From a virus, in UHGV virus genome UHGV-1372688: a DNA stretch of 5,010 nt; one strand, given 5' to 3'. The notes beneath the pieces are model-generated. The model had not been told where the DNA came from. It saw nothing but the letters and a program-made list of their open reading frames with translations, and did no database searches. This document shows positions 1,076-4,592 of this stretch, piece by piece. Positions within the stretch are counted from its first letter, which is position 1, and every line of letters starts with the position of its first letter. A program made the position numbers and the translations under genes.

Positions 1076-1471
1076 CTATTTACTTGGCTCTGGTTGTGGC
1101 TCTGGTTGTGGCTCTGGTTGTGGCTCTGGCTCTAGACTAGGTAAAACCTCTTTATAATTATTAGGGTCTGACACCCATTTTATAAAATTAGATAAATTCC
1201 CAAAACTTGCCCTTTCCTCTGGAGAAAGTGAATCATACTTACATTTCATTTCTCTTTTCAAACATTCAATCTCTTCAACAGTATCATACATTTGGTCTCC
1301 AAAAACTAAAGGTCTACAAGCAACTCTACCTTGTTCAAGTAAACAATAAATATCATTCTCCATAAAATATGACTGGTCTGTTTTACTAGGTAACAAAAAC
1401 TCTTGAGGTTTATCTTCAAAGCTTTTATTATAAACTGTGTCAATAACTTTATAACTTTTCTTTCTAATCAT
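1076..1471 (-). CDS. Hypothetical 131-aa acidic protein with a C-terminal (PEPQ)n tail. Its position immediately after VP1 suggests a scaffold or VP3-like role, but that is unproven.
   Basis: ORF-track ORF with ATG at 1471. SD AGGAGG (1481..1476 minus) 4 nt upstream, and the SD overlaps the VP1 TAG stop. It ends ...LEPEPQPEPQPEPQPEPSK. It is followed by the terminator. Confidence 0.6.
   Translation of the reverse strand: MIRKKSYKVIDTVYNKSFEDKPQEFLLPSKTDQSYFMENDIYCLLEQGRVACRPLVFGDQMYDTVEEIECLKREMKCKYDSLSPEERASFGNLSNFIKWVSDPNNYKEVLPSLEPEPQPEPQPEPQPEPSK
1086..1133. repeat. Tandem 12-nt repeat ggctctggttgt: three perfect copies plus one variant copy (ggctctggctct)
   Basis: Perfect copies at 1086-1097, 1098-1109 and 1110-1121; variant copy at 1122-1133. 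It encodes the PEPQ repeats at the C-terminus of the 131-aa protein. Confidence 0.9.
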
Positions 1472-1479
1472 AATTCCTC

Positions 1480-3063
1480 CTAAATTCTACCTGCAACAAT
1501 ACTAGGATTTGATTGTATAGGAATGCTTCTTGTAGCTTTAATGTCAAGATAGCAATTCAACAATATAGAATCATCCTCAGGAACTGCAAGAACTCTAGTA
1601 AGTGGAGAATTAGACTCCATAAATTCAGCATTTAAAGTAGGAGCATTAGCAAACTTTTGTGCCAAATGCCAAACATCTAAAGACTGAAAACCAGCGGTAA
1701 CATTACTTCTCATCAATCCAGAAACCTTATTATATCCCTCTCTATACTCTCTATATCTAGGAGTATAACCAAAAACTTTATCACTTGTAGCATTATCAGA
1801 ACTTAAAAATAACTCTCTCTCCATAACTGGCTGTTCTCCAAGGTTAGCAAACTCTGGAAAATAATAATCAAATCTGTCTCTTTTTTCCCACTTTCTATCC
1901 AATCCTTGTTGATAAATTACTTCAGAATCAACACAAGCAAGAATCATAAATATCCCATGCTCTCTAGCTGAAATCTCACATAATTTATCATTCTCAACAC
2001 CAAAACCAAGTGCCGCCATATTACCCTGCGGAGTTGAAGCACTCTCTGAACTCTGTACAACTGGCTCTGAATTAATCATAGTTGTAGTACTACCAAGAAA
2101 CTCTGAACGACCAACAAGAAAATCTGGAATCTCCATTCCAAAATGTTCCTTTATTAAATCAATATATCTCATACCAGCTCTTCTATCTTTTTCAAGCAAA
2201 ACTTGTAAAGCACTAGCTTTTCTCAAACTCTCAATAGAAAGACCACTTACAGCCGACATATCAGCATATATAGATTTATCATTAGAAACAGCATTATAAG
2301 CAACACTTGCAAAACCAGCATCAATAGGATTTGTTTGATAATTCTTATTCTTAAAGTAAACTTTATCACCCGAATTACTTTCAGCATAAATAGGAGCATC
2401 ACCAAGCAATGAAATATCAACTTGCTCTGGTTGTGGCAGACAAGATGTAAAGTAATCAATAGGTTTACCTTTTTTCAGTAATTTATAATTTGCTAAAGTT
2501 TCAGCATAAACTCTACCACTAGGCAAATTATCATCACTAAATTCTTTTACCTCATCTTGAATATAATTTACTCTAAACCATTCATTCCAAATTTTATTAT
2601 AAGCTCTAAAAGGTAAAGCACTTACAGTGTAATCAATAGTATCTTCTGTAGGTGGAATACCTAAATAATCAGCAATACCACCTGTAACATTATTAGACTT
2701 ATCTTTCATAGGAATTTGAGGAACTCTATATTTAGTATCATCATCTTGATAAGTTTTCTCACCCATAAAATTTATCCAGTGATTCCAAAGAATTCTATTA
2801 GGTACCCAAAATGCAAAGAACTTCATCTTAATATTAGTCATAGGTGGCGCAACCATAGGCATTATCCTTGCCAAACTAGATATTTTAACTTCAAAATGGT
2901 CATTAGGTTGTAACTCTGACCAGTAAATTGGATACAAATAATCAGTCTTAATTGTAGTTACAAGACTTTCAGATAAATCAAAAGTTGACAAATTAGCATT
3001 AGCTTGTGGCAAAATATTATTATTATTTACCACAGAGCTTGGCATTTTCATATTTAAAGCCAT
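1480..3063 (-). CDS. VP1: Major capsid protein VP1 (Microviridae F-like jelly-roll capsid), 527 aa
   Basis: The N-terminal region carries the characteristic microvirus VP1 signatures: STFDLSES, LQPNDHF (LPGD-like), and FFAFWVPNRILWNHW (FFVPxRxxW). It is the largest ORF, of typical gokushovirus VP1 length. The SD is GGAAGGAGAG with an 8-nt spacer before the ATG at 3063. Confidence 0.9.
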   Translation of the reverse strand: MALNMKMPSSVVNNNNILPQANANLSTFDLSESLVTTIKTDYLYPIYWSELQPNDHFEVKISSLARIMPMVAPPMTNIKMKFFAFWVPNRILWNHWINFMGEKTYQDDDTKYRVPQIPMKDKSNNVTGGIADYLGIPPTEDTIDYTVSALPFRAYNKIWNEWFRVNYIQDEVKEFSDDNLPSGRVYAETLANYKLLKKGKPIDYFTSCLPQPEQVDISLLGDAPIYAESNSGDKVYFKNKNYQTNPIDAGFASVAYNAVSNDKSIYADMSAVSGLSIESLRKASALQVLLEKDRRAGMRYIDLIKEHFGMEIPDFLVGRSEFLGSTTTMINSEPVVQSSESASTPQGNMAALGFGVENDKLCEISAREHGIFMILACVDSEVIYQQGLDRKWEKRDRFDYYFPEFANLGEQPVMERELFLSSDNATSDKVFGYTPRYREYREGYNKVSGLMRSNVTAGFQSLDVWHLAQKFANAPTLNAEFMESNSPLTRVLAVPEDDSILLNCYLDIKATRSIPIQSNPSIVAGRI

Positions 3064-3161
3064 TAAAATACTCTCCTTCCACCTCTATAAAAAGGTACTT
3101 TCTTAGATTGATAAATAAAAGTTTTTGAAAACTGATACTGTTTCCCTTGTTGTGTAGCCAT
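3063..3161 (-). CDS. Unlisted 32-aa highly basic micro-ORF, translationally coupled to VP1. Candidate J/VP8-like DNA-binding protein.
   Basis: Hand translation of the minus strand from ATG 3161..3159 gives MATQQGKQYQFSKTFIYQSKKVPFYRGGRRVF, then TAA at 3065..3063. That stop shares its last A with the VP1 ATG (TAATG). It has 6 K and 3 R and no D or E. The SD-like AGGAGATGAGGTG sits immediately upstream. It is below the ORF-track length cutoff. Confidence 0.4.
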   Translation of the reverse strand: MATQQGKQYQFSKTFIYQSKKVPFYRGGRRVF

Positions 3162-3349
3162 TACACCTCATCTCCTCTCTTTATACTCTCAAGCATTCCT
3201 TGACACTTCCAAATAGATAAAATTTTAGGTTTTTGTCTTATAAAACCTTTTTTATACAAAGTATTAAAAGTAATATAATTATCAATAGTATCTTTTATTC
3301 TACTAATCAAATTACCAACTCCATTCAATTTTAGGTCTATCCTCAACAA
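3161..3349 (-). CDS. Doubtful 62-aa ORF. The 'M' start is really TTG and there is no upstream ATG. It overlaps the VP2 3' end.
   Basis: ORF-track entry. The codon at 3349..3347 is TTG, and the only Met is 12 aa from the end. There is no convincing SD. Its TAA stop overlaps the ATG of the 32-aa micro-ORF (TAATG). It is listed for completeness. Confidence 0.1.
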   Translation of the reverse strand: MLRIDLKLNGVGNLISRIKDTIDNYITFNTLYKKGFIRQKPKILSIWKCQGMLESIKRGDEV

Positions 3350-4034
3350 ACCTATCTCTTTTATAATCTAAATCTTTATTAAGCATAAACAAATATTGTT
3401 TAGCACTAACTGGAGAAACATTTTTATAATGTCTCTCTCTCATTCCTTGCTCTGTATTAGCAATATCTTTTTTATCTCTCTCAAGTTCCCAAGTAGTACG
3501 AGCAATATCAATCAACATTTTCTGTTCTTGTGTCGAGAGATTCTTAGTTTCTCTATAACTCTTTAAAACATTAGCTCTCGCTTGGTCTGTTTGAGCAGAC
3601 ATTAAATCTTGTTTTAATTTCTCAGAATAAACACCCATTTCCTTTAATTTAGTATCAGCTTGAGTGTTGAGCCGATTAATTTCATTTGTTTTCATATCAT
3701 CTTGAATTTTCAATGCTTCAGCATTTGTCTTATTAACATTAGCATCATTAGCCTTTTTCTGCATAGATAACTGAATAGCATTAGCAATAGACTGCCCAAC
3801 ACTATCAAAATTATAACTTGCTTGAGCTCCAGACGGTGTACTTGCTCCAGAACTAGCCGAACTAATAGCCAACATTGGATTTAAACCAGCAGCTTTTAAA
3901 TCTTGCACTCTCCTCTGAATAGAGGTATTAGACATATCTTCTTGCCAACCTCGATTTTTATCAGCTTCATTTTTATTAAACAAACCACCAACAATAGCAC
4001 TACCAATACCGCCAATAATACTACCAAATCCCAT
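3312..4034 (-). CDS. VP2: VP2-like minor capsid / DNA pilot protein, 240 aa. Start corrected to ATG 4034 rather than the TTG at 4049.
   Basis: The N-terminus MGFGSIIGGIGSAIVGGLF is a glycine-zipper hydrophobic segment. It is followed by RRVQDLKAAGLNPMLA and a long K/E/Q/N-rich coiled-coil-like region. This is the architecture expected of microvirus pilot proteins. SD AAGGAG (4045..4040 minus) with a 5-nt spacer before ATG 4034. The track's 4049 start is TTG. Confidence 0.65.
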   Translation of the reverse strand: MGFGSIIGGIGSAIVGGLFNKNEADKNRGWQEDMSNTSIQRRVQDLKAAGLNPMLAISSASSGASTPSGAQASYNFDSVGQSIANAIQLSMQKKANDANVNKTNAEALKIQDDMKTNEINRLNTQADTKLKEMGVYSEKLKQDLMSAQTDQARANVLKSYRETKNLSTQEQKMLIDIARTTWELERDKKDIANTEQGMRERHYKNVSPVSAKQYLFMLNKDLDYKRDRFVEDRPKIEWSW

Positions 4035-4053
4035 AATAACTCCTTTCAAGTAA

Positions 4054-4262: not shown

Positions 4263-4592
4263 CTATTTTTCATCACCTCCAAACCTCTTAATTAATGAAT
4301 CTATATAAGGAATATCAGATTCCAAACACATATTAGAAAATTTATATCTTCTTAACAGAACAACAACATCATACATTTTAACTTCTCTATCTCTTTCATC
4401 TAAATCTAATCTTTTCATAGGAATAGACTTAAAATCAAGTATCATTCTCTGAGACATTTCATCAATATGACAACAATAACCATACTCATTCAAAATTTCT
4501 AACTCATCACCAAAACAATCTGAAGATACATTAGCCAAAGAATAATAACCTTTTCTTTCTAAATCTCTAATTTTAGCTTTCAAATTATCCAT
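4263..4592 (-). CDS. Hypothetical 109-aa acidic protein. Start corrected to ATG 4592; the 172-aa track ORF is an upstream over-extension into the preceding gene.
   Basis: Met64 of the 172-aa ORF has SD GAGGTG 5 nt upstream (AAATATAGAGGTGTTTAT-ATG). This SD overlaps the TAG stop of the upstream ORF at 4603-4605. The N-terminal 63 aa of the longer version are I/K/L-rich low-complexity sequence overlapping the upstream gene out of frame. Function unknown; possibly a scaffold or VP5-like accessory protein. Confidence 0.5.
   Translation of the reverse strand: MDNLKAKIRDLERKGYYSLANVSSDCFGDELEILNEYGYCCHIDEMSQRMILDFKSIPMKRLDLDERDREVKMYDVVVLLRRYKFSNMCLESDIPYIDSLIKRFGGDEK

Follow-up and report, generated by a model that had tools for sequence, protein, structure and literature searches.

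Proteins of the VP8/J type are core components of the microvirus virion that are often missing from annotations, because their genes are tiny and fast-evolving. Here, we ask whether a 32-codon open reading frame (micro-ORF) directly upstream of the major capsid gene VP1 in UHGV-1372688 is such a gene. UHGV-1372688 is a complete circular gokushovirus genome, and the window analyzed here comprises its 5,010 nt. An earlier note had proposed this ORF as a candidate for the DNA-condensing protein J/VP8. The ORF is real and its peptide is as quoted there (MATQQGKQYQFSKTFIYQSKKVPFYRGGRRVF; 32 aa with an ATG start, read from 3161 to 3063 in the ORF listing); the strand, which had been left unstated, is minus, the same strand as that of all genes in the genome, and the gene order is VP2-ORF-A-micro-ORF (VP8)-VP1-VP3 (Table 1). 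Conservation, a coding signature, basic composition, and an RGGRR(V/L)(F/Y) tail support the proposal, and it is quite likely that the micro-ORF is translated and encodes the internal protein of VP8/J type in a Fusobacterium-associated gokushovirus clade. VP8 counts among the conserved core genes of gokushoviruses (PMC9239249; PMC7062461). Its function is itself already known, and the micro-ORF would be a divergent form that no annotation names.

Table 1. Features of the micro-ORF and its neighbors in the window.
Feature	Coordinates	Strand	Remarks
Micro-ORF CDS, 32 codons + TAA	3063..3161	minus	candidate VP8/J-type internal DNA-binding protein
Micro-ORF Shine-Dalgarno region (GAGGAG ... GAGGTG)	3164..3177	minus	within the 3′ end of ORF-A
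VP1 Shine-Dalgarno, GGAAGGAGAG	3071..3080	minus	inside micro-ORF codons 28-31 (G-R-R-V)
Codons 26-32, RGGRRVF, proposed C-terminal capsid anchor	3066..3086	minus	alignment A1; pN/pS 0.08
VP1 major capsid protein, 527 aa	1480..3063	minus	Pfam Phage_F 2.3e-122; phrog_514 5e-166
ORF-A, conserved small ORF, 49 aa from TTG 3310	3161..3310	minus	listed ORF reaches TTG 3349
VP2 DNA pilot protein	3312..4049	minus	phrog_22637, pilot protein for DNA ejection, 7.9e-77

The micro-ORF is joined to its neighbors by stop/start overlaps at both ends. Its stop codon TAA (3065-3063) shares base 3063 with the VP1 start codon ATG (3063-3061), which confirms, in the minus-strand read and with VP1 identified by Pfam Phage_F, the TAATG overlap described earlier; its own ATG likewise lies in a TAATG overlap with the stop codon of ORF-A. 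The purine-rich Shine-Dalgarno (SD) sequence attributed to it is present upstream of the ATG as GAGGAG (3177-3172) and GAGGTG (3169-3164), and GGAG or GAGGTG was found 6-14 nt upstream of the micro-ORF ATG in every relative. The sequence GGAAGGAGAG is used twice, as the SD of VP1 and as coding sequence of the micro-ORF. As for composition, the peptide contains seven basic residues (K7, K13, K20, K21, R26, R29, and R30; no His) rather than the nine that had been claimed, only one of which lies in the N-terminal 12 residues. A residue count bears out the absence of acidic residues, and the isoelectric point, which the earlier note had suggested estimating, is 10.7. Aromatic residues make up 7 of the 32. 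Among the 37 small ORFs on the coding strand, the micro-ORF is the most basic, and no second VP8 candidate was found among the small coding-strand ORFs of the genome. AF2 predicted a low-confidence helix for the isolated peptide (pLDDT 65).

An ORF of 32 codons could by itself arise by chance, because the window contains 36 ORFs of at least 25 aa. Conservation places the micro-ORF beyond chance: all 15 relatives that could be assessed (VP1 identity 53-79%) retain an intact copy, and its coding signature is specific to its frame. The stops or frameshifts that had been named as grounds for rejecting it were absent from the assessable relatives down to 53% VP1 identity; integrated Fusobacterium prophages are among the relatives with an intact copy. 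The peptide measures 32-35 aa in the 15 relatives and 32-37 aa in further called members, and at the truncated L066 locus, where an apparent fusion to VP2 is an artifact of circular wrapping, only the C-terminal PWFRGGRRVF is assessable. When the coding signature was compared with that of the other frames, as the note had also advised, pooled pN/pS was 0.34 in frame versus 4.1 and 1.5 in the other two frames. Excluding the regex-defined tail gave 0.38 in frame, and the out-of-frame values overall were 1.4-4.1; the value for VP1 in the same genomes was 0.42. Variable columns numbered 15, 16, and 26 of 31 at the first, second, and third codon positions, respectively, and Ser12 alternates between TCN and AGY codons across relatives. 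The micro-ORF is a real conserved gene whose protein is under purifying selection. A short, intergenic-looking region that is purine-rich near VP1 might instead hold a conserved non-coding element (a promoter, ribosome-binding site, RNA or ssDNA structure, or packaging signal) that is open in one frame by chance. This explanation has next to no likelihood: third codon positions vary most, synonymous changes dominate in the micro-ORF frame only, and the reverse-complement frames contain stops in relatives. Moreover, RNA folding was no better than that of shuffled sequences (z = -0.12), and the region matched no Rfam family, contained no terminator, and was not enriched in promoter-like sites.

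The arrangement in which the micro-ORF overlaps VP1 is found in this genome and nine relatives. In five other loci (L009, L067, L068, and L070/71), the micro-ORF ends 64-99 nt before VP1, which has its own SD there, and still retains RGGRR; L070 spells this motif with the non-SD codons AGA GGT GGT AGA CGT. The idea that the basic tail is the VP1 SD merely read in frame was rejected on these grounds, and the micro-ORF is not a by-product of that SD, because it lies 64-99 nt from VP1 in five loci. The same loci bear on whether the micro-ORF is an upstream leader, whose translation would only deliver ribosomes to VP1 by TAATG termination-reinitiation and whose peptide would be functionless. Such a leader would fit the stop/start overlaps at both ends, the location of the VP1 SD within the ORF, and the overlapped arrangement in this genome and nine relatives, but purifying selection on the peptide is as strong as that on VP1 (pN/pS 0.34-0.38 vs 0.42), its sequence is kept where it is separated from VP1, and its length is constrained to 32-37 aa. 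We consider a functionless leader very unlikely.

The probable identity of the encoded protein is indicated by its C-terminus. Residues R26, G27, G28, R29, and R30 are invariant in alignment A1, and the tail RGGRR(V/L/I/M)(F/Y) is present in 29 of 30 distinct peptides, the exception being P0126, which ends in RGGRRIS. The pattern RGG[IR]R.?[FLYW]$ matched 16 of 16 family copies, with no match among the 1,015 other small ORFs and essentially none in shuffled sequences. The strict canonical pattern RGG[IR]R[FL]$ matched no family member, the family having one extra residue (V/L/I/M) before the terminal F/Y. Comparable tails are RGGRRF in SpV4, RGGIRL in phiEC6098 and phiMH2K, RGGIRF in Chp1 and Chp2, and, more loosely, VGGQQF in phiX174 J. 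In the VP8/J class, Gly-Gly is followed after two or three residues by a hydrophobic or aromatic C-terminus, an arrangement also seen in RGGRRVF-COOH. Within the VP8/J family, structural conservation is confined to the last four residues; cryo-EM shows the C-terminal Phe of SpV4 VP8 buried in a hydrophobic pocket of VP1, and a structural role of the tail is described for SpV4, EC6098, and phiX174 (PMC11281519). The size and location of the micro-ORF also agree with this class (32 aa, on the coding strand, between VP2 and VP1), as does its basic composition without acidic residues, at the low end of charge.

Profile comparisons gave low-scoring matches to canonical VP8. Alignment of the micro-ORF family with canonical VP8 by hhalign gave P = 5.5e-4 over 30 columns (probability 30%), and the mid-peptide F-S-K-T of the family aligned with F-(S/R)-(R/K)-T of canonical VP8 (alignments A1 and A2). 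In a search with a canonical-VP8 HMM, family members ranked first to third of 1,031 small ORFs, at 11-13 bits; the copy of this genome was not among the 40 matches listed. Against phrog_10695, the family fell short of significance, with one member matching at E = 4, compared with 4.5e-19 to 8e-8 for Chp2, EC6098, and phiMH2K. These sequence comparisons are no more than suggestive of homology between the micro-ORF family and canonical VP8.

The peptide of this genome had no match in Pfam or PHROGs; with Pfam PF04726 (Microvir_J), neither this peptide nor three other family members matched at E ≤ 10, and phiX174 J itself scored 60.9 bits against a cut-off of 30. The family profile found only chance matches among PDB chains, such as "VPFARGGRR" in ribosomal uL4 (E = 0.6). 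An exhaustive HMMER search of 1.84 billion representatives recovered only three clusters of the family, along with a single spurious match to a repeat protein, and no bridge to canonical VP8. A tandem-duplicated peptide query found only clusters of 35-37 aa and missed those of 32-33 aa in the collection, so that its count is a lower bound. A back-translated scan with QFSKxFIYQ gave 1 viral-contig and 50 metagenome-contig matches, all attributable to chance and lacking microvirus context. The family was absent from seven distant gokushovirus viral contigs (VP1 27-39% identical), six of which carry small Arg-rich ORFs with canonical tails of the RGGIRL/RGGYRI type. These VP8-like ORFs are 22-38 aa long, and the reference VP8/J proteins are 36-44 aa long.

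Three named systems allow a closer comparison. SpV4 VP8 ("DNA binding protein ORF8", 38 aa, PDB 9CGM) is, like the micro-ORF peptide, small, basic, and free of acidic residues, and its end (...NPRGGRRF) is identical to that of the micro-ORF (...FYRGGRRVF) in RGGRR and the terminal Phe. The two differ in length (38 vs 32 aa), charge (+13 vs +7), and aromatic residues (2 vs 7); SpV4 VP8 lacks both the extra residue between RR and Phe and the FSKTFIYQ core, and its gene, unlike the micro-ORF, does not adjoin VP1. It is present at 60 copies per capsid (PMC11281519). Canonical gokushovirus VP8 (phrog_10695), which includes phiEC6098 VP8 (PDB 8DES), Chp1/Chp2 ORF8, and the "putative DNA binding protein" of phiMH2K, is likewise a single small coding-strand ORF; its N-terminal half is rich in Arg/Lys, and it shares with the micro-ORF family an RGG-x-R-hydrophobic C-terminus. 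Canonical proteins, however, are 36-44 aa with charges of +12 to +18 and end in RGGIR(L/F), whereas the family tail is RGGRRV(F/Y). The VP8 gene of EC6098 follows VP2, as the micro-ORF does after ORF-A, although the overall gene orders differ (VP1-VP2-VP8-VP4 vs VP2-ORF-A-VP8-VP1-VP3).

The third system, phiX174 J (38 aa; PF04726; phrog_2354 "DNA condensation"), resembles the micro-ORF in position. The analogy drawn in the earlier note is correct, the J gene (848-964) lying directly upstream of the major capsid gene F (1001-2284). Its N-terminal part is basic, and its aromatic-aromatic-x-GG-xx-F tail (LWYVGGQQF) can be set beside VPFYRGGRRVF, but the two proteins have no detectable sequence homology (no Pfam match). 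phiX174 belongs to Bullavirinae and possesses external scaffold and spike proteins, both of which are absent from this genome. In phiX174, J enters with the DNA, replaces the internal scaffold B, and remains capsid-bound (bioRxiv 10.64898/2026.07.25.740675). J and SpV4 VP8 take different courses: the N-terminus of the former is close to the 2-fold axis, and the latter extends toward the 5-fold axis (PMC11281519).

The main departure from these proteins is the low charge of the micro-ORF peptide (+7, 22% K/R), compared with +12 to +18 and 32-50% K/R in the reference proteins. At 60 copies, +7 would neutralize approximately 8% of the 5,010 phosphates of the genome; the same arithmetic gives approximately 13% for phiX174 J and approximately 23% for EC6098 VP8. 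These figures would suit a real protein that binds the capsid interior through its tail and has a main job other than DNA condensation, for example in assembly or maturation, where it might displace VP3, the internal scaffold, or stabilize contacts of VP1, with polyamines or other factors neutralizing the charge. The conservation pattern is in line with this, as conservation in the family is highest not in the basic N-terminus but in the tail and in FSKxF(I/V)YQ, an aromatic core prone to form beta structure. So is the behavior of known proteins: SpV4 VP8 also occurs in empty capsids and extends a VP1 beta-sheet (PMC11281519), and the replacement of scaffold B by phiX174 J takes place at maturation (bioRxiv 10.64898/2026.07.25.740675). 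Nevertheless, N-termini of the typical kind, rich in Arg, occur in more distant family members (MRRSRARAR and MRKNRARR); the 32-aa forms contain no acidic residue, and the 33-37-aa forms contain a single Asp at most; and both roles are compatible in J/VP8 biology. We therefore regard a protein with a main role outside condensation as unlikely. It is about equally doubtful that this clade carries a distinct low-charge, aromatic-rich VP8 subtype, perhaps acting together with ORF-A, that holds the ssDNA mainly by base stacking or serves mainly as a clamp inside the capsid, in place of the electrostatic condensation of typical J/VP8 proteins.

For a VP8/J-type internal protein, the reading that we prefer, phiX174 J and the VP8 proteins of SpV4 and phiEC6098 provide the model. 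We infer that the peptide is translated, incorporated into the virion, and bound to both the VP1 pocket and DNA, and that translational coupling influences its stoichiometry; its charge and the analogy with known proteins suggest a role in ssDNA binding and packaging. As ssDNA is synthesized and packaged, the peptide would move into the procapsid together with the genome. The proposed binding partner is VP1, which is homologous to the VP8-binding capsids 8DES_A (1.3e-102) and 9CGM_A, the latter from SpV4 (3.8e-67). Each VP1 would hold one peptide (60 per virion), with the last aromatic residue of the tail (VP-aromatic-aromatic-RGGRR-V-F) lodged in a hydrophobic pocket on the inner surface of the capsid protein. 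Contacts to the ssDNA would come from the Lys/Arg residues upstream of the tail, and perhaps also from the unusually numerous aromatic residues; these would fasten the DNA to the shell and offset part of its charge. VP2, a 1-nt gap, ORF-A, TAATG, VP8, TAATG, and VP1 may form a translationally coupled chain, in which the VP1 SD inside the GRRV codons could help tie VP8 output to VP1 output.

The other small gene in this chain, ORF-A, begins 1 nt past the stop codon of VP2 and ends by TAATG onto the micro-ORF; for VP2 itself, the probable start is ATG 4034, the sixth residue of its listed ORF. ORF-A is conserved, with a pN/pS of 0.32 in its conserved core, and had no match in Pfam or PHROG. ORF-A was considered as the true J analogue and set aside, as it is weakly basic in this genome and close relatives and bears acidic C-terminal extensions in distant relatives (alignment A4); its identity as VP5 was ruled out, as it has no similarity to VP5. 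If ORF-A does act together with VP8, the two would constitute a two-part internal protein set specific to lysogenic Fusobacterium gokushoviruses.

As a divergent VP8 subfamily, the micro-ORF family would complete the gene complement of a gokushovirus clade that is gut-associated and lysogenizes Fusobacterium, and would add RGGRR-x-aromatic to the known sequences of the capsid-anchoring tail, leaving the understanding of microvirus biology unchanged. Adding its sequences to VP8 profiles could allow annotation pipelines to detect the gene. The claim that the micro-ORF is hidden from automatic annotation holds in part. It goes unannotated in each of the five GenBank records in which it is present, whereas JGI/IMG and ENA call the exact peptide, as a "hypothetical protein", and Logan gene calls include the micro-ORF in 5 of the 12 relatives whose upstream region was covered (L062, L063, L067, L068, and L073).

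The window, 5,010 nt long, represents a complete circular genome of gokushovirus-like type, and its minus strand carries all the genes, in the order VP4, a 109-aa ORF, VP2, ORF-A (a small ORF), VP8 (the micro-ORF), VP1 and VP3. The order in EC6098, VP4-VP5-VP3-VP1-VP2-VP8, has only the placement of VP8 after VP2 in common with it; the Chp2 order is VP1-VP2-VP3-ORF8-ORF4-ORF5. The acidic 109-aa ORF matched no family in Pfam or PHROGs, and its position and length match those of a called 109-aa gene in a relative, L063.

Genes and conserved small ORFs of the window
Feature	Coordinates	Strand	Remarks
VP4, 359 aa	672->1, continuing 5010->4603	minus	
Acidic ORF, 109 aa (MDNLKAKIRDLERKGYY...)	4263-4592	minus	starts 10 nt past VP4 stop
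VP2	4049->3312	minus	phrog_22637, 7.9e-77
ORF-A	3161-3310 (longest ORF extends to 3349)	minus	conserved small ORF
Micro-ORF	3161->3063	minus	between ORF-A and VP1
VP1	3063->1480	minus	Pfam Phage_F, 2.3e-122
VP3	1471->1076	minus	Chlamy_scaf

The earlier note had read the micro-ORF as a candidate J/VP8 DNA-condensing protein, and the position and translation given there both proved exact; the ORF lies on the minus strand. Base 3063 is common to the micro-ORF TAA and the VP1 ATG, as expected from the TAATG overlap described there, and the micro-ORF ATG likewise overlaps the ORF-A TAA. The purine-rich Shine-Dalgarno (SD) sequence ascribed to the ORF is present upstream as GAGGAG and GAGGTG (3177-3164). 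The peptide indeed lacks acidic residues, but it contains seven basic residues (4 Lys and 3 Arg) rather than the nine originally counted; its isoelectric point is 10.7, and 7 of its 32 residues are aromatic.

Because the VP1 SD (GGAAGGAGAG, 3080-3071) is embedded in codons 28-31 of the micro-ORF (G28-R29-R30-V31), a possible origin of the basic tail as a by-product of the VP1 ribosome-binding site had to be considered. Relatives were gathered independently of the micro-ORF, using a VP1 search that covered contigs across the identity range, together with two GenBank genomes. An intact ORF was found upstream of VP1 in all 15 loci with the region available (VP1 identity 53-79%), with a length of 32 aa except in one locus (35 aa); in a sixteenth, truncated locus (L066), only the C-terminal PWFRGGRRVF is visible. 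The stop/start overlap with VP1 occurs in the window and nine relatives, whereas in five loci (L009, L067, L068, L070 and L071) the ORF ends 64-99 nt before VP1, which there has its own SD. In L070, a Fusobacterium prophage, RGGRR is encoded by AGA GGT GGT AGA CGT, without an SD-like sequence. The spaced loci and these non-SD codons rule out a mere by-product of the ribosome-binding site, and the retention of RGGRR under such circumstances indicates that the tail is under selection as protein. The 11 distinct orthologues of 99 nt vary in 15, 16 and 26 of 31 columns at codon positions 1, 2 and 3, respectively, and their Ser12 codons alternate between TCN and AGY. Pooled pN/pS was 0.34 in frame, versus 4.1 and 1.5 when the remaining two frames were read, and 0.38 in frame with the ORF-locating tail left out, compared with 0.42 for VP1 of the same genomes; these are uncorrected pooled p-distance ratios from related sequences, meaningful only in comparison between frames and with VP1. 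Alternative readings of the region found no support: RNA folding of the micro-ORF region did not surpass that of shuffled controls (z = -0.12), an Rfam search returned no matching family, neither a terminator nor a surplus of promoter-like sites was found, and the antisense frames are interrupted by stops in relatives.

VP8 has been described as a conserved core gene linking gokushoviral subfamilies (PMC9239249), and annotations of it exist for EC6098, phiMH2K and some metagenomic microviruses. The expectation that automatic annotation would miss the micro-ORF was borne out in the five GenBank records holding the family (the peptide and its orthologues), all of which leave it unannotated, but not in JGI/IMG and ENA, which call the exact peptide a "hypothetical protein"; Logan gene calls contain the family for some relatives and lack it for others. 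The family is narrow, given that exhaustive HMMER searching of 1.84 billion representatives yielded only three 50%-identity family clusters. With a tandem-duplicated query, word-indexed searching of proteins recovered family clusters of 35-37 aa alone and missed those of 32-33 aa in the same collection, including the window peptide; micro-protein counts obtained in this way are lower bounds. The family is most likely a divergent form of VP8.

The family tail reads ...VP(F/W/Y/N)(F/Y)RGGRR(V/L)(F/Y), with R26, G27, G28, R29 and R30 invariant in the alignment. Reference sequences, all from database records, end in ...IMRGGIRF (Chp2 ORF8), ...SFRGGIRF (Chp1 ORF8), ...AMRGGIRL (phiMH2K), ...SMRGGIRL (phiEC6098 VP8), ...NPRGGRRF (SpV4 VP8; PDB 9CGM) and ...ARLWYVGGQQF (phiX174 J). 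SpV4 VP8 thus has RGGRR and a terminal aromatic residue in common with the family, whose tail is one residue longer. In cryo-EM, the C-terminal Phe of SpV4 VP8 is buried in a hydrophobic VP1 pocket near the 2-fold axis; in every microvirus structure solved, this pocket is filled by the J or VP8 C-terminus, and structural conservation of J/VP8 is limited to the last four residues (PMC11281519). The strict canonical tail motif was not found in the family; the reference-derived motif relaxed by one optional residue occurred in 16/16 family copies, in 0/1,015 other small ORFs of these genomes and ~0 times in shuffles. Small Arg-rich ORFs ending in SRGGIRL or SRGGYRI were present in six of seven distant gokushovirus contigs, several with a preceding YYV that echoes WYVGG of phiX174 and FYRGG of the family. 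A second shared element is the mid-peptide F-(S/R)-(R/K)-T of canonical VP8, which corresponds to F-S-K-T in the family.

Profile comparison of the family with canonical VP8 by hhalign aligned 30 columns (P = 5.5e-4, probability 30%). An HMM trained on canonical VP8s alone placed family members first to third of 1,031 small ORFs (E = 0.006-0.02, 11-13 bits), the window copy being absent among the 40 matches listed. Canonical VP8s are members of phrog_10695, which one family member reaches only at E = 4, and Pfam Microvir_J gave no match to the family. On these results, homology to canonical VP8 is suggestive but not demonstrated. Window VP1 is homologous to the VP8-binding capsids of phiEC6098 (8DES_A, 1.3e-102) and SpV4 (9CGM_A, 3.8e-67), and from this, together with the size, charge, tail and uniqueness of the peptide in the genome, we infer functional equivalence to VP8. 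Conservation, coding signature, tail and capsid homology support the original J/VP8 reading.

During DNA packaging, J takes the place of scaffold B and stays bound to F (bioRxiv 10.64898/2026.07.25.740675). By analogy with J and VP8, the peptide would probably enter the virion together with the ssDNA, lodge Phe32, its last residue, in the VP1 pocket and touch the DNA with its Lys and Arg residues. AF2 prediction of the lone peptide was uninformative. The window copy has a charge of only +7, and 60 copies would neutralise ~8% of the genome phosphates, compared with ~13% for phiX174 J and ~23% for EC6098 VP8 when calculated likewise from charge and genome length; distant family members regain an Arg-rich N-terminus (e.g., MRRSRARAR... 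and MRKNRARR...).

ORF-A, 44-71 aa long in relatives, lies between VP2 and the micro-ORF and carries the motif I.D.I..Y...N.LY.KGFI, with a core pN/pS of 0.32; it gave no Pfam or PHROG match and no similarity to gokushovirus VP5. Only 1 nt separates it from the VP2 stop, and a TAATG overlap ties it to the micro-ORF. Stops and starts are near-contiguous or overlapping along VP2, ORF-A, VP8 and VP1, and this chain, with the VP1 SD lying within VP8 codons, suggests translational coupling, which would fit a 1:1 stoichiometry of the peptide with VP1. In some relatives a spacer separates the ORF from VP1, so such coupling is not a requirement.

Three relatives, L070 (ENA, 105 kb), L071 (GCA_021443715.1, Fusobacterium varium) and L073 (65 kb), lie on large bacterial contigs. 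L070 and L071, whose VP1 is 58% identical to that of the window, are flanked by FUR and hydrogenase-rubrerythrin genes, and L073 by alanine racemase and Na-sulfate symporter genes; other large-contig VP1 matches (53-59% identity) carry the name Fusobacterium in their sources. The bacterial flanking genes and source names indicate that the clade lysogenises Fusobacterium, and the window GC of ~0.31 is in keeping with such a host.

Within the 3' end of VP3, a 12-nt unit is repeated perfectly in tandem 3.8 times (1085-1133, minus strand); this repeat encodes the C-terminal EPEPQPEPQPEPQPEP tail of the scaffold protein and gives rise to a spurious GSGC-repeat ORF on the opposite strand (1047-1157). 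The VP3-VP4 gap (673-1075, ~400 nt) contains no convincing coding-strand ORF and has a raised GC (0.33-0.39 versus ~0.30); a search there for inverted repeats of >=10 nt found none. This stretch may contain the origin or else be a degraded VP5 region. In the same region, the more distant relatives L067 and L068 carry genes of 61 aa and 85 aa.
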